Origin: Acidimicrobiia bacterium
GTDB taxonomy: Bacteria; Actinomycetota; Acidimicrobiia; Acidimicrobiales; JANYDT01
DNA: 64,000 bases
Assembly: GCA_031368215.1 (NCBI GenBank)
Contig: JANLRD010000086.1
Coordinates: 16-64,015 of the forward strand
Direction: 5' to 3'
Made by a program: the position numbers and the translations under genes. The notes under the pieces are model-generated. The model had not been told where the DNA came from, made no database searches, and worked only from the letters and a program-made list of their open reading frames with translations. Positions 4,293 to 46,003 of this stretch are shown one piece after another (within the stretch, counting starts at the first letter, position 1; every line of letters begins with the position of its first letter).

Positions 4293-5477
4293 ATGGAACC
4301 CCAGTACAGCTGCCCGACCCCTTTCGGAACGGTCCAACTGCACCGGGCCCACGTGGACCGCACAGGGACGCTGCAGGCATGGGACGGAGCGGACCTTCTG
4401 CTTCTCGATCATGTCAAGGAACTCAACCCTGTGCCCGGGTCGCGCATCCTCGTGATCGGTGACACGTTCGGCGCGCTCACGACCGCGCTGTCGTCGTTCG
4501 GAGTCGTGGTGATGTCGGACTCTGCGGTGTCAGAGCGGGGGATCAAGGAGAACCTCGCTCGGAATCCGGAAACTGCCACCGGGCAAGGCGTGACCTTTGT
4601 GGATGCATCGCTCGAGCGTGATGCGCTTGTTGCAGCCGTTGGTGGTCCGGTCGATCTCGTCGTGTGGAACGTCGGGCGAACGACGGAGTCGGTTTCGCAC
4701 GCGACGTCGCTTCTCAGCGCTCTCGGGGGCGGAGCGACCATCGTGTTGGCGGCCGGCCTCGACAAGAACCTCCCGCCGCGCACCGGTGAAATCCTGCGCA
4801 GCGTCGGCGAGGTGACGACCCACCCGGGACGCCGCAAGGCCCACGTGTTCGAGGTCCGCCCCTTTGTCGGGGAGTCCACGTTCCGATCGGTCGAGCCGTC
4901 GAAGGCGACCGAGGTCGTTGTCGCCGAGCACGGACTGGTAATGCACGGCGGACCCGGTGTCTTCTCGTCGGACCGGTTCGACCTCGGTACCCGTCTGCTG
5001 GCCGGACAGATCGCGTCGCGCGCCGAATCGCTCGGGGTCGTACGAAGCGTCGTCGATCTCGGGTGTGGGAACGGCGCGCTCGGCATCCTCGCGCTGCGAC
5101 ACTTCCCTGAGGCGTCGGTCCACTTCCTCGACGATTCGCGCACCGCCGTCGCTACCGCTCGGCGCAACGTGCAGGCCAACGCGGCGACGTCGGCGGAGCG
5201 TGCGCACTTCCTCTGCGCCGACGTGTTCGGCGACGACTGGACGGAACCGGTTGACCTCGTGCTCTGCAATCCGCCCTTCCACCACACCAAGGCGATGAGT
5301 GATGAAGTGGCATGGCAGATGTTCGTGCAATCGCACCGGTACCTTGCCCCGGGCGGGGAACTCTGGGTCGTCGGCAACCGCCACCTCGGCTATCACGCCA
5401 AGCTTTCGCGGCTGTTCGGCAACGTCCGCCAACTCGACGCGCATCCGAAGTTCGTCGTCCTCGCGTCGACCCGCTGA
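4293..5477 (+). CDS. rRNA (guanine-N2)-methyltransferase, RlmG/RsmC family
   Basis: ORF 4050-5477 trimmed to ATG 4293, because the upstream part overlaps the convergently read HD gene. Has a two-domain layout, a SAM motif VVDLGCGNGALG and the catalytic NPPFH motif. Confidence 0.85.
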   Translation: MEPQYSCPTPFGTVQLHRAHVDRTGTLQAWDGADLLLLDHVKELNPVPGSRILVIGDTFGALTTALSSFGVVVMSDSAVSERGIKENLARNPETATGQGVTFVDASLERDALVAAVGGPVDLVVWNVGRTTESVSHATSLLSALGGGATIVLAAGLDKNLPPRTGEILRSVGEVTTHPGRRKAHVFEVRPFVGESTFRSVEPSKATEVVVAEHGLVMHGGPGVFSSDRFDLGTRLLAGQIASRAESLGVVRSVVDLGCGNGALGILALRHFPEASVHFLDDSRTAVATARRNVQANAATSAERAHFLCADVFGDDWTEPVDLVLCNPPFHHTKAMSDEVAWQMFVQSHRYLAPGGELWVVGNRHLGYHAKLSRLFGNVRQLDAHPKFVVLASTR

Positions 5478-6146: not shown

Positions 6147-6795
6147 CGCCCCACAACCCGCCCCGAAGTCCCGTCGCACGCTGATTGTGGCGGTGGTGTC
6201 CGCCGTTCTGGTCGTCGCTCTGGGCGTCGTGGCAGTGGTGGCAACCAGGAAGGACTCTTCTTCGTCCGACCCGACCGATGTGAGCGCCGTCAGCATCGAG
6301 ACGGGCGACGTGACGGTCACCGGGGCGGAGTTGGTTCGACCGCCCGACGCGCCGGCGATCGACCCTGCCATCGGTGCCAAGGCTCCTGCGCTGAACGGAC
6401 TCGGCTTCGACGGCTCGCCGGTGTCGATCACCCCGGGGGAGCGGCCGACGATCGTGATGTTCGTCGCACACTGGTGCCCGCACTGCCAGCGCGAGGTGCC
6501 GCAGGTCGTCAAGTGGCTGGCCGCCGGTGTCGCCAAGGGGGTCGACATGAAAGCCGTTGCGACCTCCACCGACGCGAAGCTGCCGAACTACCCGCCATCG
6601 AGTTGGCTCGCCGGCGAAGGCTTTACTGTTCCGACCCTCGTCGACAGCACGGAGTCAACCGCAGCGTCCGCATACGGGCTCGATGCGTTCCCGTACTTCG
6701 TCGCCGTCGACGCGAAGGGCTACGTCACGAAGCGGATGGCGGGCGAGCTCACCGAGGCGCAGTTCACCGACCTCGTCGCGGCGGCCAAGGCCTGA
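6139..6795 (+). CDS. TlpA/ResA-like membrane-anchored thiol-disulfide oxidoreductase
   Basis: N-terminal TM anchor (TLIVAVVSAVLVVALGVVAVVA) and a thioredoxin fold with WCPHC. ATG 6139 overlaps the end of the DsbB-like gene by 8 nt. Confidence 0.85.
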   Translation: MANAPQPAPKSRRTLIVAVVSAVLVVALGVVAVVATRKDSSSSDPTDVSAVSIETGDVTVTGAELVRPPDAPAIDPAIGAKAPALNGLGFDGSPVSITPGERPTIVMFVAHWCPHCQREVPQVVKWLAAGVAKGVDMKAVATSTDAKLPNYPPSSWLAGEGFTVPTLVDSTESTAASAYGLDAFPYFVAVDAKGYVTKRMAGELTEAQFTDLVAAAKA

Positions 6796-21263: not shown

Positions 21264-22622
21264 CTACGCGAAGAGGGTCTCGCCGAGGAACCCGCCGGGC
21301 GACGCCACGCCGGGCGGAACGGCGAAGAGTGCGGAACCGGTGTGCTGGAGGTACTCCATGAGCGTGTCGTTCTTGGAGAGCTGCAGCTGCATTGGGATGT
21401 AGTGGGTCGCCGGGTCGCGGACGAAGGCGATGAAGAACAGTCCGGCATCGAGTCGGCCGAGTCCGTCGGACCCGTCGGTGAAGTTGTAGCCACGGCGAAG
21501 GATGCGCATGCCGTTGTTGCTCGACGGATGGGCGAGGCGCATGTGCGAGCCGACGGCAATCAGCGGCTCGTCGCGAGCCCCGGTTGACTCGAAGTCCGGA
21601 ACGGTGAACTCGGTGCCCCCGGAGAGCGGCGCGCCGTCGCCCTTCGTCCGCCCGATCAGCCTCTCCTGCTCGGTCAGCGACGTGCGATCCCACGTCTCGA
21701 TCCGCATGCTGATGCGACGGGCTACGAGATAGGAGCCGCCGGCGAGCCATCCGTGCTTCGAATCCGGCGTCGAGGAAGGCACCCACACGTGCTCGTCGAG
21801 CAACGCCGGATCTTCCGCCTTCAAGTTCGCCGTGCCGTCCTTGAACCCGAAGAGGTTGCGTGGCGTGGTCTGCGAGGTCGAGGTCGACGACGTGCGTCCG
21901 AAGCCGAGCTGGGACCATCGAACCGTGGCCGTACCGAACGCGATGCGGGCAAGGTTGCGAACAGCGTGTACGGCGACCTGGGGATCGTCGGCACACGCCT
22001 GCACGCAGAGATCGCCGCCGGAGCGGGCGGGCGAGAGGTTGTCCTTCGGAAAGAGCGGAAGCTCCGCCAACGATGGCGGCCGGCTAGCCGCGATTCCGAA
22101 CCGGTCGACGCCGGCGGCCGTCTCGAACAGCGACGGCGCGAAGCCGATGGTGATCGTGAGCCGTGATGCGGACAGGCGCGCTTCGCCGGTGTCGTCGGGA
22201 GGTGCAAGCGGTGATCCGTCGACTGCTCCGAATGCTCCCACCGGCAGACCCTGCGTCATCTTCGCCGCCGCGTCGGTCCACTGCTGCAACAGGCGGATCA
22301 GACGATCTCTGCTCGTGGTGGTGACGTCGAATGCGGCGAAGTGCAGCCGGTCTTGGGCCGGCGTGGCGATCCCCGCCTGATGGACACCGAAGAACGGGAC
22401 GGCGCCGGTGTCCGTGAGTGAGGCAGCCGGACCCGTGCCGGTCGCGTTGCGTCGGCTGAATGCCGCGGCACCGGCAGCGACGGCTGCGACACCAACGCCT
22501 GCTGCGCCGAGCAGACGGCGGCGGGACACTCGAGGCTGGGGGGTCGAGATGATAGTACGCGCGCTGAGGGTCGCCTGATCGCTGGCCTCGACGTCGGGCG
22601 CCTTCGTCTGGGTGTCGTTCAC
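21264..22622 (-). CDS. efeB: Dyp-type peroxidase / deferrochelatase EfeB (Tat-exported)
   Basis: ORF 21264-23132 trimmed to GTG 22622, which overlaps the efeO stop (GTGA). Has a Tat signal SRRRLLGAAGVGVAA. FFGVHQAGI, FGFKDGT and RRGYNF motifs are those of EfeB. Confidence 0.9.
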   Translation of the reverse strand: MNDTQTKAPDVEASDQATLSARTIISTPQPRVSRRRLLGAAGVGVAAVAAGAAAFSRRNATGTGPAASLTDTGAVPFFGVHQAGIATPAQDRLHFAAFDVTTTSRDRLIRLLQQWTDAAAKMTQGLPVGAFGAVDGSPLAPPDDTGEARLSASRLTITIGFAPSLFETAAGVDRFGIAASRPPSLAELPLFPKDNLSPARSGGDLCVQACADDPQVAVHAVRNLARIAFGTATVRWSQLGFGRTSSTSTSQTTPRNLFGFKDGTANLKAEDPALLDEHVWVPSSTPDSKHGWLAGGSYLVARRISMRIETWDRTSLTEQERLIGRTKGDGAPLSGGTEFTVPDFESTGARDEPLIAVGSHMRLAHPSSNNGMRILRRGYNFTDGSDGLGRLDAGLFFIAFVRDPATHYIPMQLQLSKNDTLMEYLQHTGSALFAVPPGVASPGGFLGETLFA

Positions 22623-23806
22623 AGCACGACGGCGGCAGTGAGACGTGAAAGGGGCTCGCCCAGCGCATTCACGGCGTCGGCCATTGCCTTGATCTGTTCG
22701 GCCGAGAGGTCGCGGTAGTTCACGAAACCATCGCCCTTCTTCTGCGCGTCGAGCAGCTTCTGCACGTCGTCGAAGCGCTCGTCGAGCTCGGCGAGCAGCG
22801 CCGGGTTCTTCTCTCGAAGCACGGGTTCGAGCACCTCGAAGGCCATCTTCGCCCCTTCGACGTTGGCCTGGAAGTCCCAGAGATCGGTTCCTGACCAGAC
22901 CTCCTCTTCGCCCGTCACCTTGCCCGTGGCCACCTCGTCGAGAAGCTCCTTCGCACCGTTGCTCAGCTGATCGGGCGAGAGTGTCACGACGGACACGCGA
23001 CCGCGGAGATCCTTCGTATCGGCAACGAGTTGATCGGCGAGCGCGGCGCGTTGCCCGGCGGTGAGCGCGACATACGACGCGTCGTTGGCCGGCGGCCAGA
23101 GGTCCTTCTCGATCCGATGCCAGCCGGTCCATTCCTGGCCCGCTTCGAGGTCGGCTTCGCGAAGGTCCAACTTTGGGTCGATGTCACCGAACGACTCGGC
23201 GACAGGCTCGATCCGTTCCCAGTGCATGCGGGTCGACGCGTAGTTCGTCCGCGCATCGTCGTCCTTGCCGGCGCGGTACAACTCGGCGAAGGTCTCGGTC
23301 TTCTCCAGCAACTCGTCGGCCTCCCTGCGAACGAATGCGGTGTACTGCTCGGTTGCGTCCGTGAGCAGCGTCTCGACCGCCGGGGCGGCCACCGCTGAAC
23401 CTGAGTCGGTCACCGTGAAGTCGCTGCGGATGCCGTCGCCGGTCATACCGGGTTTGCATGTCGCGATGTACGTGCCGGGCTTGATCCGCACGACGAGGTT
23501 CCGGGTGATGCCCGGGCCGATGTTCTCGACCTCGCCGACGACGCGCACGCCGTCCTCGGCGAAGAGATAGAACTCGTTGACGTTCGAACCCCTGTTGGTC
23601 ACGGCGAAGGTGAGAGTTCCGCTCGGAGCGTCGGCCGACGATACGGAGCATGCATCGTCAGTCGCCGTGACGGTGAGCTTGGCGGGATCGTTTCCACTCT
23701 TCGTGGTAACGGAATCGGCCTTCTGCGTGCAGGACGTGAGCAGGGCACCGGCGCCCACGAGGGCGATGATCACGACGCCGCGGCGAAGGCTCGGAGGGGC
23801 GATCAT
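22619..23806 (-). CDS. efeO: Iron uptake system component EfeO (cupredoxin plus M75/imelysin-like domains)
   Basis: ATG 23806 overlaps the efeU stop (ATGA). Lipoprotein signal ALVGAGALLTSC, an N-terminal cupredoxin-like region (TNRGSNVNEFYL, GTYIATCKPGM) and a C-terminal WTGWHRIEKDLW region. Confidence 0.88.
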   Translation of the reverse strand: MIAPPSLRRGVVIIALVGAGALLTSCTQKADSVTTKSGNDPAKLTVTATDDACSVSSADAPSGTLTFAVTNRGSNVNEFYLFAEDGVRVVGEVENIGPGITRNLVVRIKPGTYIATCKPGMTGDGIRSDFTVTDSGSAVAAPAVETLLTDATEQYTAFVRREADELLEKTETFAELYRAGKDDDARTNYASTRMHWERIEPVAESFGDIDPKLDLREADLEAGQEWTGWHRIEKDLWPPANDASYVALTAGQRAALADQLVADTKDLRGRVSVVTLSPDQLSNGAKELLDEVATGKVTGEEEVWSGTDLWDFQANVEGAKMAFEVLEPVLREKNPALLAELDERFDDVQKLLDAQKKGDGFVNYRDLSAEQIKAMADAVNALGEPLSRLTAAVVL

Positions 23807-24696
23807 GCCGGCTGTCCTTTGGGGGTGATTCGGGCGGGGGCGCTCGGCCGTCGACGCATGAGCAAGATGAAGGCCGTCATCACCGGGATGACATAAAGCA
23901 GCCACGCCCCGGCTTGCAGCCACGTCGTGGTCGGGGAGAAGTTGAACGTGCCCTTCAGCAGCGTTGCCAGCCAGCTACCCGGACGGACCCAGGACGAGAC
24001 GTCGAACGCGAGACGGTTCAGCCCGGGAAGGACGTCAGCCTCCTGGAGGTCGTGAATGCCGTAGGCGAGCACACCGCCGGCAACGAGGACCAGCAGCGCA
24101 CCGGTCCAGGTGAAGAAGCGGGCCATGTTCAGCTTCAGCGCGCCCCGGTAGATCGCCACGCCGATGAGGACCGCGACCGCAAGGCCGAGGGTGGCCCCGA
24201 TCAGCGGATCCGTCGACGACCCGGTTGCCTGCGCCGCCGCCCACAGGAACAGCGCCGTCTCCAGCCCTTCACGGCCGACCGCGAGCACGGCGACGAGAAC
24301 GAGTGCACTTCCGCCGGCGGCGACGGCCGCGTCGATGCGGTGTTCGAGCTCGCCCCGGAGCGACCGCGCGGTGCGCGCCATCCAGAAGATCATCCAGGTG
24401 ACGAAACCCACCGCGAGGATCGAGAGGGTGCCGCCGATCGTCTCCTGCGCTCGGAAGCTCAGGCCCCGGGGACCGTAGGTGAGAAGCGCCCCGAACGCGA
24501 GCGACACGCTGACCGCGATCCCGACGCCGCTCCAGATCCGCGGTGCGAGCTCACGTCGGCCCGACTTGTGGATGTAGGCGAGCAGGATGCCGACAACGAG
24601 TGCCGCCTCGAGGCCTTCGCGCAGGCCGATCAGGAAGTTCGCGAACACGTTGCGGCCTTGCTCGAAGTCATGTCCTCGAGCGTATCCCCAAAACAT
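23803..24696 (-). CDS. efeU: FTR1/EfeU high-affinity iron permease
   Basis: 297 aa, 7 TM, with two REGLE motifs (GLREGLEAALV and GREGLETALF). Confidence 0.92.
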   Translation of the reverse strand: MFWGYARGHDFEQGRNVFANFLIGLREGLEAALVVGILLAYIHKSGRRELAPRIWSGVGIAVSVSLAFGALLTYGPRGLSFRAQETIGGTLSILAVGFVTWMIFWMARTARSLRGELEHRIDAAVAAGGSALVLVAVLAVGREGLETALFLWAAAQATGSSTDPLIGATLGLAVAVLIGVAIYRGALKLNMARFFTWTGALLVLVAGGVLAYGIHDLQEADVLPGLNRLAFDVSSWVRPGSWLATLLKGTFNFSPTTTWLQAGAWLLYVIPVMTAFILLMRRRPSAPARITPKGQPA

Positions 24697-24768
24697 TAGG
24701 TGTGCCTACACCGCGGTGCATGGAGAGCCGCAAAGTCTCCGTTCGCCGCCCCACCGCTACCCCAGCGG

Positions 24769-24904
24769 CCGCAGATGAGACGTCACCCGCCGCAGATGAC
24801 CCCGTCCGTGCCGCACATCCGGCAGTTTCCAGCCGTTTTGAGTCGAAATCGGCCGATGTGCGGCAGAGAGGCTGGGAGGTGCGGCAGGCGAAGCGGATCT
24901 GCGG
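24769..24904. repeat. Phased 21-bp motif module, left copy (3 reverse plus 3 forward motif copies)
   Basis: CCGCAGATG at 24769 and 24790 and CCGCACATC at 24811 are in 21-bp phase. After a 44-bp step come GATGTGCGG at 24855, GAGGTGCGG at 24876 and GATCTGCGG at 24896. Region 24787-24888 aligns ungapped with 25889-25990 at about 75/102 identities by hand count. Confidence 0.85.
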
Positions 24905-24998
24905 CGGCGGAGTCGTTCGCCTGGCCGGGTCCGGCTGTCGTCCGATCGACACACCCGGTGAACGGCTGACGTGCGGGCGGCTTCGACCCGGTGTCGCC

Positions 24999-25799
24999 TC
25001 AGCGAACGGGCGCCGTGAAGTGCTCGGCGAGCGCGTCGAGTTGGTCCTCGGTCACACCGGCGTGGAGGAGGTACCGGGTGGCCGACCCGTAGCGCTCTGC
25101 GAGTTCGGCGAGAAAGAGGTGCATCGTCTCCTGGGGAGCGGAGAGGAAGGACGACGGCTGGCTGATCATCGCATCGAGACGCTCAGGTGTCTGGTCCCGG
25201 ATCAGGGCGATGAGTTCGGGCATGGCGAGGGCACTCATCGCATAGTCCTCGGCGATCACCCGGCGGTCGACACCGAACGCCGACAGCAGGAGCGCGACGA
25301 GCACACCGGTCCGGTCCTTGCCAGCAGTGCAGTGCACCAGCGCCGGGCTCGTGGCGCTGTCAGCCAGCACGCTGAAGCAGTCCGAGATACGTGCTGCGCC
25401 GAGTTCGCACATCTCGAGGTAGCGGTCGGCAAGGAACCGTTCCGCTGACAGCGTCGACGCCGCGATCGAACCCGGGTCCCACACCTGCGTGAGGATCGGG
25501 ATCGAGTGCACCTCGAGGTTGCGGAGGGGGCTCAGGCGACGCTCGGGTTCGGTACGCAGGTCGAGCACCGTTCGAATCCCGAGGCGTTCGACGAACAGCA
25601 CGTCGGTCGGTGTGGCGAAGTCCGGTGTCGCCGACCGGAACAGCCGACTCCGCCGCACCCGGCGGCCGTCGGCGCACGGTGTGCCACCGACTTCTCGGAA
25701 GTTGAGGAGTCTGACGGCACGGTCAGCCGGTCGCTCGAACCGCGGCGCGTCGTCGCGGTCGAAGCGGAGAACTGCGGAGTTGGCGTCCATGCGCCGCAC
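24999..25799 (-). CDS. Tyrosine-protein phosphatase family protein (Y_phosphatase3 type), paralogue 1
   Basis: 266 aa (GTG 25799 or ATG 25790). NFREVGG near the N-terminus and the catalytic loop HCTAGKDRTG. Confidence 0.88.
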   Translation of the reverse strand: MRRMDANSAVLRFDRDDAPRFERPADRAVRLLNFREVGGTPCADGRRVRRSRLFRSATPDFATPTDVLFVERLGIRTVLDLRTEPERRLSPLRNLEVHSIPILTQVWDPGSIAASTLSAERFLADRYLEMCELGAARISDCFSVLADSATSPALVHCTAGKDRTGVLVALLLSAFGVDRRVIAEDYAMSALAMPELIALIRDQTPERLDAMISQPSSFLSAPQETMHLFLAELAERYGSATRYLLHAGVTEDQLDALAEHFTAPVR

Positions 25800-25891
25800 G
25801 GTACAGAGCGAACGCCAACACTCGGCAACAGCAAGGCATCCGCCGAGTGAATTAGGCGGCTGCGAAAACCGTCCCCTTGCGACGGCGGCCG

Positions 25892-26161
25892 CCGCAGCTC
25901 AGCCGGTCTGTGCCGCAGATCGCCGGGTTTCCTGCGGTTCCGGGCGGAACTCGACTGATGTGCGGCAGGTTGGCGGGGATGTGCGGCAGGTTGGCGGGGA
26001 TGTGCGGCAGGTTGGTGGTGGTGTGCGGCAGGTTGGTGGTGGTGTGCGGCAGGTTGGCGGGGATGTGCGGCAGGTCGGTGGTGGTGTGCGGCAGGTTGGT
26101 GGTGGTGTGCGGCAGGTTGGTGGTGGTGTGCGGCAGGTTGGTGGTGGTGTGCGGCAGGTTC
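25892..26161. repeat. Phased 21-bp motif module, right copy, with a 9.6-unit tandem array (25960-26161)
   Basis: CCGCAGCTC at 25892 and CCGCAGATC at 25913, a 44-bp step, then 9 complete 21-bp units plus a 13-nt partial unit. Units start at 25960, 25981, 26002, 26023, 26044, 26065, 26086, 26107, 26128 and 26149. Variant a is GTGCGGCAGGTTGGCGGGGAT (units 1, 2, 5). Variant b is GTGCGGCAGGTTGGTGGTGGT (units 3, 4, 7, 8, 9; unit 6 has T>C). Confidence 0.95.
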
Positions 26162-26200
26162 GCAGAAGGCGGCGAGCCCGTCGCGGCTACCTTGGCGCAG

Positions 26201-26938
26201 ATGACCGGTTCGGCGCCGTGGTCGATCGTGGCCCGCAACCTTCCCGACCACGCGTCGAACCCGATTCACACGGACGCCGGTGCCCGGGCGGCCGGATTCC
26301 CACGCGCGCTCGTCGCCGGTGTGACGACCTATACCTACTGCGTTCATCCGATCGCCGAGCACTGGGGAATCGAGTGGGCGCGCTCCGGATCGGCAGAAGT
26401 CTCGTTCGCATCGCCGGTGTTCGACACCGAGACCCTTTCGTTTCCGGTGACCGTCGACGCGGACGACGGCCTCCACCTCGAGGTCCGGGTCGACCGCTCG
26501 GACCGACCCCTCGTGCGCGTCGATGCCCGGCGTTGCGCCTCCTTGCGTCCGGTTCGTTCGCCCGGAGAGACAGAGACGCTGGAGCCGATGATCGTTGATC
26601 TCGACGGAGAATTCGACCCGAGCTACGCCGCACGCGCCGGCGATGACCTCGACCTGTTCAGAGCTGCTGGCGTCGTCCATCCCGGCGTGTGGCCGAGGCT
26701 GGCCAACCACATGTTCCACGAACAACTCGTCAACGGCGCCTGGATCCACACGCGCTCGCACATCAGCCACCATGCGCTCGCTCCGCTCGGTGCGAATGCC
26801 GTCGTGCGCGGCCTGGTGTTCGACCGTTTCGTGCGGCGCGGGCTGCGCGCCGTGGCCGACGTCGAGATCACCGTTGAGGGCGTACTGGTCGCGTCGATCG
26901 AGCACGAAGCCATCATCGACGTGACGGTCACGGAGTAA
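26201..26938 (+). CDS. MaoC-like dehydratase / double hot-dog fold protein
   Basis: ORF 25877-26938 trimmed to ATG 26201, because the upstream part is the repeat array. NPIHTDAGARAAGFPRALVAGV is the MaoC dehydratase motif, and a second hot-dog-like half follows. Confidence 0.75.
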   Translation: MTGSAPWSIVARNLPDHASNPIHTDAGARAAGFPRALVAGVTTYTYCVHPIAEHWGIEWARSGSAEVSFASPVFDTETLSFPVTVDADDGLHLEVRVDRSDRPLVRVDARRCASLRPVRSPGETETLEPMIVDLDGEFDPSYAARAGDDLDLFRAAGVVHPGVWPRLANHMFHEQLVNGAWIHTRSHISHHALAPLGANAVVRGLVFDRFVRRGLRAVADVEITVEGVLVASIEHEAIIDVTVTE

Positions 26939-27013
26939 TCGCCGCCGCATCCGCTTGCTCCTCGGTCTCCGATCATGTGACATGGTCTCCGGTCATGTGA
27001 CCGGTTCGAGGCG

Positions 27014-27505: not shown

Positions 27506-28681
27506 ATGAACGCAAACGGTGTTCCATCACCGTTCGACCGTGCATCTGGTCCCTCCGGTGACCGTGGGGCAGAGTTGGTGCCTGCTCGTGACCCGTTTCT
27601 CGACGTGCTCCGGGCCGTGTCGATCTGTCGGGTCGTCCTGCTCCACACGCTGCTCCGACCACCGACTGTGTACCTCCCCTGGGTGATGTGGATCTACCCG
27701 GGCATGCCCGAGGTGTTCTTCGTGAGCGGCGCCGTCACCGCGCAGATGCTCTCCCGCCGCAGCGCGGGTGAGGTCGTCGTCCGACGCATCCGACGCATCG
27801 CGCTTCCCTACGTGTGGTTCGCCGCATGCGCGCTGTTCGTCATGATCACGACCGATCTCCGAAGCGACCAACCCGGCGCCTCCTTTCCGTGGAAGCACGT
27901 CTGGCACTGGGCAGTCCCCCTGCTGGCGCCGACCGGATCACGCGATCGTGTGTTCCTGTGGGGCCAACTCTGGTACGTCGGGGCCTTCCTGTGGCTCGTC
28001 TTCGCTGCCGCCGGACTGCTCTGGCTGCATCGCCGGGTCGGCGCGTGGAGTGCCCTTGTCCCGCTCGCGGGTTTTGTGTTCACGCAGTGGTTGACGAAGA
28101 TCCACGGCGTCGTCGTGGACGAGGCGATCATCACCGCATTCCAGTTCGGCATCTTCTTCGCACTCGGTCCCTCCTATGCGCGCATACGGGGTTGGGGGAG
28201 TCGGTCCCTTATCGCGCTCGGGGGTGGCTTCGGCGCGCTTGGAGTGCTCACGGCATTCGTCATCGAGCCGATCCACGACAAAGGCACGCAGGAGCTCTAC
28301 AGCTCGAGGTCTGCCCATCTCCTGATCGGCGCGGCGTGGATGCTCATCGCTCTTTCCGCTCGAGCGCCGATTGAGCGATGGATCTCGCATCGGCGGGGAG
28401 CGGTCGACGCTGTTGTCGGTCGGATCAACCAGCGGACGTTCACCCTCTACCTTTGGGGCCTCCCGGCGAACGCCGTGGCCAACTCGCTCAGTCGGCGCAT
28501 CGACTCGCAACCCGCCCGCATCGCTGCCTATCTCGTCCTGACTGCGGTCGCGCTGGCCGTCTTCGTGGTCTGCTTCGGTCAACTCGAAGATGTCGCCGCT
28601 CGGCGTCGCCGTCGCTGGCTTCCCGTCGGGGTCGCGGGAGGTCAGGCCGTGGCAAGTTCCGTCGCCGGGCCGGTTACCTGA
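27506..28681 (+). CDS. Acyltransferase family 3 membrane protein
   Basis: ORF 27038-28681 trimmed to ATG 27506. Has about 10 TM segments. The N-terminal DVLRAVSICRVVLLHT and FFVSG motifs are typical of the Acyl_transf_3 (OafA-like) family. Confidence 0.8.
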   Translation: MNANGVPSPFDRASGPSGDRGAELVPARDPFLDVLRAVSICRVVLLHTLLRPPTVYLPWVMWIYPGMPEVFFVSGAVTAQMLSRRSAGEVVVRRIRRIALPYVWFAACALFVMITTDLRSDQPGASFPWKHVWHWAVPLLAPTGSRDRVFLWGQLWYVGAFLWLVFAAAGLLWLHRRVGAWSALVPLAGFVFTQWLTKIHGVVVDEAIITAFQFGIFFALGPSYARIRGWGSRSLIALGGGFGALGVLTAFVIEPIHDKGTQELYSSRSAHLLIGAAWMLIALSARAPIERWISHRRGAVDAVVGRINQRTFTLYLWGLPANAVANSLSRRIDSQPARIAAYLVLTAVALAVFVVCFGQLEDVAARRRRRWLPVGVAGGQAVASSVAGPVT

Positions 28682-29124
28682 AGGCCGTCAACGGCGCGCT
28701 CGAGGATCGCCGCCATAGTCGCGATCTCTTCGCGTGTCATGTGCGCAAACAGATGCTGGCGAACTCCTGACACATGGACCGGAGCAAGGATCCGTACGGT
28801 GTCCCAGCCGAGGTCGGTCAGGTGCGCGTAATAGCCGCGCCGGTCGGTCTCGCACTTGATCCTCTCGACGAGGCCCCGGTGAACCAGCTGATCGATCTGG
28901 TAGGTGAGGCGACTTCGTGGACTCACGACGTCCTGCGCCAGCTCGGTCATCCGAAGCTGGCGCTCGGGAGCCTCGGACAGCAACGCCAGGACTTCGTAGT
29001 CGGCGAACCCCAGACCGAACGGTGAAAGGTCCCCGGAGAGTCGGTCGGCGAAGGTTCGCTGGAACCGCAGGAACAATCGCCAGGCGTGCTGCTCGTCGTC
29101 GGACAACCAGGGGGTGTCGGGCAT
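28642..29124 (-). CDS. MarR family transcriptional regulator
   Basis: 160 aa winged HTH (LRMTELAQDVVSPRSRLTYQIDQLVHRGLVERIKCETDRRGYYAHLT). Its 3' end overlaps the convergent acyltransferase gene by 40 nt. Confidence 0.9.
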   Translation of the reverse strand: MPDTPWLSDDEQHAWRLFLRFQRTFADRLSGDLSPFGLGFADYEVLALLSEAPERQLRMTELAQDVVSPRSRLTYQIDQLVHRGLVERIKCETDRRGYYAHLTDLGWDTVRILAPVHVSGVRQHLFAHMTREEIATMAAILERAVDGLQVTGPATELATA

Positions 29125-29848: not shown

Positions 29849-30481
29849 ATGCCGCACACCTCAGACCAGCGCTTCTTGGTTCTGCATGGCTGCAAGCTGA
29901 AGGGCTTCTCCGAGCCGTCGGCCATCGGCCCGGTCATCGGGATGAAGCCGCCGGCTGTGACCAAGATCCTCCAGGGGCTGGTCAAGGAGGGTCTCGCCAA
30001 GTATCTCGAAGGTGGGCGGATCTCCGGCTATGCCCTCACCCCCGCCGGGAAGGAAGAGCAGGTGCGCCTCGCTGAGGCCGACCTGGCCGGCAGCGGCTCC
30101 CGGACGGTGGTGCAGGTTTCGTACGAGAAGTTCCTCGTCCTCAACGCCGACCTCCTCGCCGTCTGCACCGCCTGGCAGGTCCGCGACCTCGACCGCAACA
30201 TCCTGAACGACCACGGCGACCGCGACTACGACGCCGGTGTAATCAAGCGCTTGGCTGACGTGCACCTCGGGGTGACCCCGATCACCGGTGCGCTGTCGGC
30301 CGCCCTCGACCGGTATCACCACTACCAGCCCCGCCTGCAGCTGGCGCTGGACAAGGTGAGGAAGGGCAGCCACGAGTGGTTCGCCAAGCCGATTCTCGAC
30401 TCCTATCACACGGTCTGGATGGAGCTCCATGAGGATCTCCTCTCCACGCTCCGTATCGAACGTGCGTCGGAAGACGCCTGA
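29849..30481 (+). CDS. Hypothetical protein with N-terminal winged-helix-like region
   Basis: 210 aa. The N-terminus (PAVTKILQGLVKEGLAKYLEGGRISGYALTPAG) looks wHTH-like. The helical C-terminal domain was not recognised. Confidence 0.6.
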   Translation: MPHTSDQRFLVLHGCKLKGFSEPSAIGPVIGMKPPAVTKILQGLVKEGLAKYLEGGRISGYALTPAGKEEQVRLAEADLAGSGSRTVVQVSYEKFLVLNADLLAVCTAWQVRDLDRNILNDHGDRDYDAGVIKRLADVHLGVTPITGALSAALDRYHHYQPRLQLALDKVRKGSHEWFAKPILDSYHTVWMELHEDLLSTLRIERASEDA

Positions 30482-31559: not shown

Positions 31560-31605
31560 ACTGCGCTGCGCTTCTCCGCTGCGCTGCGCTTCTCCGCTGC
31601 GCTTC
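31560..31605. repeat. 18-nt tandem repeat (2.5 units) in the dapA-rnj spacer
   Basis: CTGCGCTGCGCTTCTCCG at 31560-31577 and 31578-31595, then a partial CTGCGCTTCG. Confidence 0.85.
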
Positions 31606-45912: not shown

Positions 45913-46003
45913 CCGCAGATCTTGTCACCCGGCTCCGCCGATCGGTGTCTCCCGCGCTCCGTTTTCGTGGCAGCGCCTCGCAGCCGTCGGTCCGACAGGA
46001 CCG

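Follow-up and report, generated by a model that had tools for sequence, protein, structure and literature searches.

Opposed arrays of 21-bp-phased repeats form an apparently lineage-restricted intergenic element in uncultured Acidimicrobiia

The element considered here has as its closest analogues the bacterial interspersed mosaic elements (BIMEs) of the RIB/RIP type, which are made of repetitive extragenic palindromes (REPs) and bind integration host factor (IHF) in their linker (PMC2817692, PMC3333891), and the Correia repeat enclosed elements (CREE) and similar bacterial MITEs (miniature transposable elements with inverted repeats) with a central IHF site (PMC2649163, PMC2229807, PMC10969869); it fails defining features of each. 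REP units are hairpin palindromes of 20–40 bp, usually tagged GTAG or CGTC (PMC3733652), and their copy number usually exceeds 100 per genome (PMC2817692). We analysed a stretch of 64,000 nucleotides (the window) of contig JANLRD010000086.1, from a metagenome-assembled genome (MAG) of an uncultured member of the Acidimicrobiia, in which two modules of opposed repeats lie one on each side of a gene for a tyrosine phosphatase. On the strength of sequence comparison, we conclude that both modules are copies of one lineage-restricted, previously undescribed intergenic element; the motif string leads only to unrelated primers in the literature, where we found no description of the motif. Two further kinds of system invite comparison. 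Theta-replicating plasmids such as pSC101, R6K and pPS10 carry iterons of 19–22 bp, and parC-type centromeres include R1 parC and the 20-bp repeats of pSK41. Among transposons with multi-site ends, Tn7 has TnsB sites in a phase of about 22 bp, Mu has L1–L3 and R1–R3, and Tn402 has 19-bp repeats.

Both modules follow one plan (Table 1), which emerges from an ungapped alignment (A3) of seven module sequences from four independent loci: one to three reverse units come first, then a centre whose length is fixed at 35 nt, then two to ten forward units. Each forward unit consists of a 12-bp motif, GAT(G/C)TGCGGC(A/G)G, followed by a 9-nt spacer, giving 21 bp in total (GATGTGCGGCAG type). In A3 the motif columns are invariant among paralogues, whereas nothing is conserved in the spacer apart from its richness in G on the motif strand. 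In the left module, CCGCA[G/C]AT recurs at 24769, 24790 and 24811 in units that are reverse complements of the forward motif, and a step of 44 bp then leads to GATGTGCGG at 24855, with GAGGTGCGG at 24876 and GATCTGCGG at 24896 beyond it. The right module opens with CCGCAGCTC at 25892 and CCGCAGATC at 25913, from which the same 44-bp step leads to 25957; Tandem Repeats Finder (TRF) scores its forward array (25959–26160) as 9.6 copies of period 21 bp with 93% matches (score 334). The two modules stand in direct orientation, 1102 bp apart. The centres are G+C-rich (31–43% A+T over 35 nt) save for A/T at positions 7–9, 17–19 and 28–30 in essentially all of nine modules, so that the A/T tracts recur about every 10.5 bp with a Fourier peak at 10–10.5 bp. 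A dyad signature that spans the centre, CGCA[CG]AT[CG]-N-[CG]AT[CG]TG[CG]G, measures 51 nt overall in every module and finds no match among about 100 unrelated loci. Before any expansion of an array, the element is about 110–160 bp long.

The likeness of the two modules goes far beyond chance. Positions 24787–24888 and 25889–25990, aligned without gaps at an offset of 1102, agree at 76 of 102 positions, where the same 102-mer matches the rest of the 64-kb window at a mean of 28.3 positions (standard deviation 4.5, maximum 49); the original prediction had counted about 75 by hand, and all the module coordinates it gave hold. A repeat search returned 73% identity over 113 nt at the same spacing, and GTGCGGCAG occurs 13 times in the window against 1.3 expected, a count reached in none of 100 shuffles, which bears out the earlier claim of structured modules on both sides of the phosphatase gene. 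Compared with its own reverse strand, a module gives 63 of 102 identities (nhmmer E=5e-9), as opposed (inverted) arms should. A profile search of the 64-kb window with the module returned no copy beyond these two. The repeat is real, because Logan contigs of the window's own strain, assembled independently from two other sequencing runs (L006 and L007; loci retrieved in this work carry L numbers), contain the left module and the beginning of the right. Both contigs (L006 1–196 and L007 1–198, k=31) end inside unit 2 of the 21-bp array, which makes the array a systematic assembly break point in this lineage; contigs built with k=31 should break there, and the count of 9.6 units comes from a single short-read assembly.

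Modules of the same architecture are found at other loci. The census pattern GTGCGGCAG-N12-GTGCGGCAG, run over genome contigs, gave at least 118 matches, mostly Gly/Ala-rich coding repeats or chance, and the only true modules among the matches listed were L041, L096 and L127. L096, on another contig of the MAG that contains L012, lies between the stop of an AMP-binding (acyl-CoA-synthetase-like) gene and the start of a DUF2786/DUF7168 gene, while L127, from another Acidimicrobiia MAG, lies between the stop of a major facilitator superfamily gene and the start of an acyl-CoA-dehydrogenase-like gene. Both were found by the forward arm alone, and the reverse arm then appeared at exactly the expected distance, completing a full dyad with motif starts at 21, 46 and 21 nt. 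An orthologue of the L096 locus, L135, carries a variant module with the motif GATGTGTGCGCG and a 36-nt A-tract centre, and another, L136, has no module. The occurrence of one architecture at such unrelated intergenic sites marks a dispersed family rather than a device specific to this locus, which settles a question left by the original prediction. Its fear of an ordinary REP family at hundreds of sites is not borne out by the available evidence, with at least four loci known, at least two of them in MAG GCA_031423635.1, and none beyond the two modules in the 64-kb window. Furthermore, idiosyncratic outer units (GCAGATG(A/G)..CACCC on the left, GATCTGCGGCGG on the right) are common to L127 and the left window module, and such sharing at both ends argues that whole elements were copied, not motifs alone. 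A scan of JGI metagenomes with a 22-base pattern gave two matches, both coding-like and without a reverse arm, and hence no module; collections of IMG/VR viral contigs, phages and plasmids held none either. As far as is visible from these sequences, the family thus appears to be dispersed, low in copy number and confined to a narrow clade of Acidimicrobiia.

In an uncultured Actinomycetes MAG (CAWBBE010000004.1), L019 has at 6270–6400 five perfect 21-bp units AAAGTGCGGCAGTGCCAGCGG that end about 20 nt before an ATG (cagATGaccggc); core and period are those of the modules, but both the reverse arm and the centre with A/T tracts are lacking, and the array may be an unrelated look-alike picked up by the search pattern. 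Within the window, positions 45913–45975 hold CCGCAGATC-N13-CCGCCGATC (TRF period 22) followed by CCGTTTTCG, abutting the GTG start of a minus-strand 2-hydroxyacid-dehydrogenase-like gene. This segment resembles a reverse arm with half a centre but has no forward arm, and the module profile does not score it as significant; a half-module that has decayed and a chance likeness are the two readings of it. Directly upstream of the DUF2786/DUF7168 gene, an inverted repeat GCTGTCACAG-N3-CTGTGTGAC is kept in three lineages whether or not the module is present (L096 5895–5925, L135 about 745–775, L136 about 1355–1385), and it is probably an operator.

The right module could be followed in relatives at the same locus, in some 25 contigs that were reached through the phosphatase and its cluster members, a route by which alleles lacking the phosphatase are not visible. 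Counted as reverse plus forward units, it has 2 + 9.6 in the window, 2 + 2 in L001 and L008–L011, 2 + 2 with one additional degenerate unit in L012–L014 and L041, 1 + 2 in L139, 1 + 5 in L140 and 1 + 7 in L137; L138 has a variant, and the module is absent from L141 and L143 and from L002. Unit number at this locus, which the original prediction had proposed to compare, does vary, and the right forward arm is a variable-number tandem repeat with alleles of 2, 2+1, 5, 7 or 9.6 units. L137, L139 and L140, with 7, 2 and 5 units, encode the same phosphatase protein, and the identities of their coding sequences (CDS) to every other lineage are equal. Orthologous right modules are 82–86% identical as compared with 67–72% at third codon positions of the phosphatase CDS, and the intergenic DNA that adjoins them is barely alignable. 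The higher identity of the module indicates constraint on it as a whole. In a neighbour-joining tree of the phosphatase CDS (a single gene, and to be read with caution), L002 is the outgroup and L141/L143 are nested within the module-bearing clade. Because L141/L143 also retain a solo forward-like unit, their lack of a module looks like a secondary deletion and not a site that predates insertion.

Against this background the element can be set beside the described systems. Like BIMEs, it is intergenic and interspersed, combines short alternating or opposed motifs with linkers of fixed length, has a central segment suited to protein-induced bending, amplifies its units in tandem and uses a lineage-specific motif. 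Unlike theirs, its unit joins a non-palindromic 12-bp motif to a 9-nt spacer and recurs in strict 21-bp phase; the known copies are few, and the arms lack covariation. Single 21-nt units fold at 0 to -4.3 kcal/mol into inconsistent stems of 2–4 bp and have TGC-N-GCA as their sole internal symmetry. No unit carries a GTAG or CGTC tag, all beginning with GATG or GGTG, and no REP-associated tyrosine transposase (RAYT) was seen in the genome fragments covered. With CREE the module shares a length of about 100–150 bp, inverted arms around a bendable core, a position beside gene starts, a presence that varies between close relatives and a potential influence on promoters. CREE, however, have single 26-bp inverted-repeat arms, TA duplications and hundreds of copies, whereas the arms of the module are multi-unit phased arrays that expand by slippage, its ends are fuzzy, no duplication is visible and an orthologous copy is apparently constrained.

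The likeness to iterons and parC lies in repeats of 20–22 bp in helical phase, which load many copies of one protein on one face, and in two repeat clusters that flank a central segment. In contrast to those systems, the module has opposed rather than direct arms, occurs in several copies at unrelated loci and sits in a chromosomal housekeeping context (dapA, RNase J, efeUOB). There is no adjacent rep gene, DnaA box (up to one mismatch), A+T-rich unwinding element or plasmid or phage match to suggest an iteron origin, and neither adjacent par genes nor a parS-like site with up to three mismatches to suggest a centromere. The ends of Tn7, Mu and Tn402 likewise have several sites of about 20 bp per arm, inverted arms and unequal site numbers per arm; the arms of the module, by contrast, enclose no cargo and are separated by only 35 bp, and TG...CA termini, 5-bp duplications and a transposase were not found at the module copies. 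Nor is this a CRISPR array, in which repeats of 23–50 bp alternate with unique spacers of similar length: the motif is 12 bp long and the 9-nt spacers are nearly identical.

We favour a model in which the module is a docking or assembly platform for a sequence-specific DNA-binding protein, placed just upstream of putative promoters, a model to which we give an even chance of being right. The invariant motif with its free spacers, the phasing by two helical turns, the opposed arms and the presence of one A/T tract per turn in the centre fit protein loading with arm pairing. The original prediction had likened the layout either to cooperative protein-binding arrays or to recombination-prone cassette boundaries. 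The former comparison gains from the phased arrays, from the retention of motif, 21-bp phase and centre length while spacers vary, and from the lack of compensatory changes; the latter finds no support. According to this model, a sequence-specific DNA-binding protein would occupy the motifs of both arms, and the 21-bp spacing, two helical turns, would bring the protomers bound along an arm onto the same face of it. The 35-nt centre is predicted to be bent, or made bendable, by its phased A/T tracts, and the opposed arms would fold back across it into a paired nucleoprotein complex. This complex would probably modulate adjacent promoters, an effect made probable by the position of the modules near the starts of the MaoC-like, phosphatase and efeU-like genes. 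Slippage by 21 bp would change the number of sites and leave the helical phase unchanged. The family would have reached several intergenic sites by some duplicative process and would since have been inherited vertically under constraint, with occasional decay or deletion.

It is tempting to go further and to speculate that the modules are chromosomal iteron-like docking arrays in which a protein zips the opposed arms over an intrinsically bent 35-bp centre upstream of leaderless promoters, and that 21-bp slippage tunes the number of protomers as a contingency switch for the flanking genes. We regard this fuller version as possible, if on balance doubtful. It would represent a kind of regulatory device that is not known from Actinomycetota, and the platform model alone would mean that a bacterium can alter the number of sites upstream of its promoters in steps that preserve helical phase. 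Several observations count against the platform model. No cognate binding protein was recognised, the nearest DNA-binding genes being a MarR gene (28642–29124) and a winged-helix-like open reading frame (29849–30481). As an operator array, the element would be expected to come with a cognate regulator and further sites, and the motif in the 64-kb window is confined to the two modules, where an ordinary transcription factor should have simpler sites elsewhere. The module has been lost (L141/L143) or has decayed (the L012 remnant and the L135 variant), and so is not essential. The estimate of constraint comes from about 100 nt in three to five lineages, and the array lengths are taken from short-read assemblies. 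Almost nothing is known of the cis-elements and DNA-binding proteins of uncultured soil Acidimicrobiia, and the explicit architecture of the element (12-bp motif, 21-bp phase, 35-nt centre, three phased A/T tracts) makes it a ready bait for a binding protein.

In the main rival explanation, the module would instead be a non-autonomous transposable element, a MITE whose arms correspond to the multi-site ends that bind transposase in Tn7, Mu or Tn402-type transposons, brought together about a short centre, and which is selfish and affects promoters only incidentally. Its dispersal over unrelated intergenic sites in at least three related genomes, its presence or absence in close relatives at three loci (absent alleles L002, L141 and L136), the descent as a whole element implied by the outer units common to the left window module and L127, and the likeness of opposed arrays around a bendable centre to paired transposon ends would all agree with such an origin. 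We nevertheless think it unlikely, since neither a target-site duplication nor a sharp terminus is visible on comparing filled with "empty" sites, with similarity tailing off gradually towards the edges, and since the "empty" allele of L141, nested in the module-bearing clade with its solo unit, points to deletion. Moreover, orthologous copies are conserved above near-neutral sites, no transposase lies beside any copy or among the fetched loci, viral contigs, phages and plasmids hold no matches, and the 64-kb window has only two copies. Were it true, the family would be a new type of bacterial MITE with multi-site ends; on this account as on the platform model, the element explains the short-read assembly breaks at the locus. 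A neutral origin, in which a few duplications of a short palindromic sequence between genes gave rise to functionless, slippage-prone DNA that now expands and contracts, would account for shifts in unit number on very short timescales, for the dispensability of the module (L141, L002), for decayed versions such as the L012 remnant and L135, and for further short tandem repeats, unrelated to this one, that relatives carry in spacers nearby. Neutral decay, however, should strike motif and spacer alike, whereas motif, 35-nt centre and A/T tracts are kept while the spacers of paralogues are unrelated, and orthologues are more conserved than third codon positions; we consider this origin quite improbable.

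Two further explanations concern what the opposed arms, or the pair of modules, might do. If the arms formed a long hairpin in RNA or single-stranded DNA, the module could be a REP- or BIME-like terminator, an mRNA stabiliser or an RNase III target. The left module does fold to -77.5 kcal/mol on the plus strand (z=-4.0) and -79.7 kcal/mol on the minus strand (z=-5.6), three of the four loci lie downstream of the stop codon of a gene, and the small central hairpin has one apparent compensatory change (GTTTC/GAAAC in L001 and L012, GTTCC/GGAAC in the window). Yet none of 20 arm pairs has a compensatory change, and the sole variable stem position (S) is mismatched in four of seven copies, which argues that the arms are carriers of a sequence motif and not the two sides of a stem. 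Shuffled sequences fold as well as the right module does (z=-1.1 and -1.7), and this module lies between divergent gene starts, so that no mRNA 3' end falls there; one arm has expanded to 10 units without a partner; and in Rfam a chance snoRNA hit was all that reached E<=1. Such a hairpin role seems to us very improbable.

To the idea that the modules act as direct repeats which mobilise or delete the phosphatase gene by recombination we give next to no credence. Their direct orientation at a distance of 1102 bp would permit it, and the neighbourhood is rearranged in relatives, where a gene for the alkaline phosphatase PhoX may be found or be missing beside the left module. But the longest exact word common to the two modules is 12 nt, and this, together with a two-sided layout in one strain, leaves no substrate for homologous recombination; the ends of the PhoX deletions differ between the window and L001 and fall in no module repeat, and no integrase or recombinase is nearby, though a phosphatase-less allele could not have shown itself among relatives that were all found via the phosphatase gene. 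The complete left module occurs only in the window strain and its Logan twin. The spacer between PhoX and efeU in L012 keeps only the outermost pieces of it, ATGACACGTCACCC ... TGCGGCGaccGGCGGAG, and the locus alignment reveals no left module in L001, where a segment taken at one point for a diverged copy (4830–4960) proved on alignment to be the PhoX-upstream spacer with a local 21-bp duplication and no member of the family. The two modules occur together in no other lineage: L001 has the right one, L012 the right one with the left remnant, and L002, L141 and L143 neither. The phosphatase gene merely sits between the modules and is no part of the element, and the flanking of this gene is an incidental coincidence of the window strain. 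The original view of a single gene bracketed as a functional unit therefore does not survive, as the two-sided arrangement recurs in no relative and single modules stand at unrelated loci (L096, L127).

Table 1. Positions of the two modules, their parts and the flanking genes in the window.
Feature	Position	Strand	Remarks
Left module	24766–24907		Whole element
Left module, reverse arm	24766–24819	-	Units CGGCCGCAGATG, CCGCCGCAGATG, GTGCCGCACATC at 21-bp steps; nhmmer E=1e-35
Left module, centre	24820–24854	.	35 nt; A/T tracts TTT 24826–24828, TTT(T) 24836–24839, AAA(T) 24846–24849, about 10 bp apart
Left module, forward arm	24855–24907	+	GATGTGCGGCAG, GAGGTGCGGCAG, GATCTGCGGCGG; steps 21 and 20 bp
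Right module	25889–26160		Whole element
Right module, reverse arm	25889–25921	-	Two units, CCGCCGCAGCTC and GTGCCGCAGATC, 21-bp step
Right module, centre	25922–25956	.	35 nt; tracts GTTTCC / GGTTCC / GGAACT
Right module, forward arm	25957–26160	+	21-bp units of the two types GATGTGCGGCAGGTTGGCGGG and GGTGTGCGGCAGGTTGGTGGT, 9.6 in all
efeUOB-like operon	21264–24696	-	
FTR1/EfeU-like iron permease	23803–24696	-	First gene of efeUOB-like operon; Pfam E=1.2e-63
Y_phosphatase3-family tyrosine phosphatase	24999–25790	-	263 aa from ATG; GTG alternative 25799; Pfam E=3.5e-58; exact protein in database
MaoC-like hotdog dehydratase	26201–26938	+	

The left module lies between the stop of the phosphatase gene and the start of the efeU-like gene, 70–120 bp upstream of the latter, and the right module lies between the divergent starts of the phosphatase and MaoC-like genes, about 100 bp upstream of the former and with the end of its array 40 bp before the MaoC-like ATG. 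Across all four loci an arm stands 40–110 bp from a gene start, which would also hold for three quarters of random intergenic regions. A TACCTT box at 26188–26193, 7 nt before the MaoC-like ATG, is kept as TAnnTT in L001, L012 and L002, and TACCGT stands 7 nt before the phosphatase ATG; their sequence and position suggest leaderless promoters for the two genes. The genes further along encode PNPOx, an acyltransferase, MarR, Tag, dapA and RNase J. We also considered whether the right array is a coding repeat, given that it is in frame with the MaoC-like gene and that gene callers in relatives extend MaoC into it; the length of the extension varies (245–294 aa), the conserved ATG serves as the start in L002 and none of the other modules is coding, and we set this possibility aside. 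We put down to chance a likeness between the reverse-arm unit and the region of the MaoC start (CGCAGATGACC..., 78% over 23 nt). Likewise discarded was a lipid-metabolism regulon, suggested by MaoC, acyl-CoA synthetase and acyl-CoA dehydrogenase neighbours: only two of four modules are upstream of such genes, the families are abundant and the category is post hoc.

The PhoX gene lies between the phosphatase and efeU genes in L012 (3793–6090), L002, L004 and L137–L139 and is missing in the window (spacer 24908–24998) and in L001, and the differing end points of the deletions mean that the losses were independent or that the spacer is unstable. Downstream of the phosphatase stop in L002, an 87% relative, positions 4815–4890 hold about three copies of a tandem repeat of about 23 bp, GGTGAACCGAAGGTGTGCGGGCC, which has a single homologous copy in the window at about 24945–24980. 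Just upstream of the efeU-like gene, 24696–24712 form a palindromic box, TTAGGTGTGCCTACACC, with the core TAGGTG..CCTA, which is a perfect 12-bp palindrome (TAGGTGCACCTA) in L012 and is kept in all relatives, including L004 at 77% identity. It looks like a DtxR/IdeR-type iron box, 11 of 19 positions agreeing with the mycobacterial consensus. The box places the annotated efeU-like start at 24696 in doubt, and a GTG at about 24648 is an alternative. Some 65 nt upstream of the phosphatase start (25791–25860; CACGGTACAGAGCGAACGCCAAC...GGCAAC.GCCAGGCGTC...GGTGAATT) are near-invariant across lineages down to 76% CDS identity and are far more conserved than third positions of the CDS; they have no match in Rfam and, from this conservation, may be an unrecognised leader or operator. 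Two more repeats lie in other spacers, a 20-bp direct repeat GGTCTCCGATCATGTGACAT of 1.9 copies and 94% identity at 26964–27001, in the short spacer on which the MaoC-like and PNPOx genes converge, and a perfect 18-bp tandem repeat CTGCGCTGCGCTTCTCCG of 2.4 copies at 31561–31603, between dapA and the RNase J gene.

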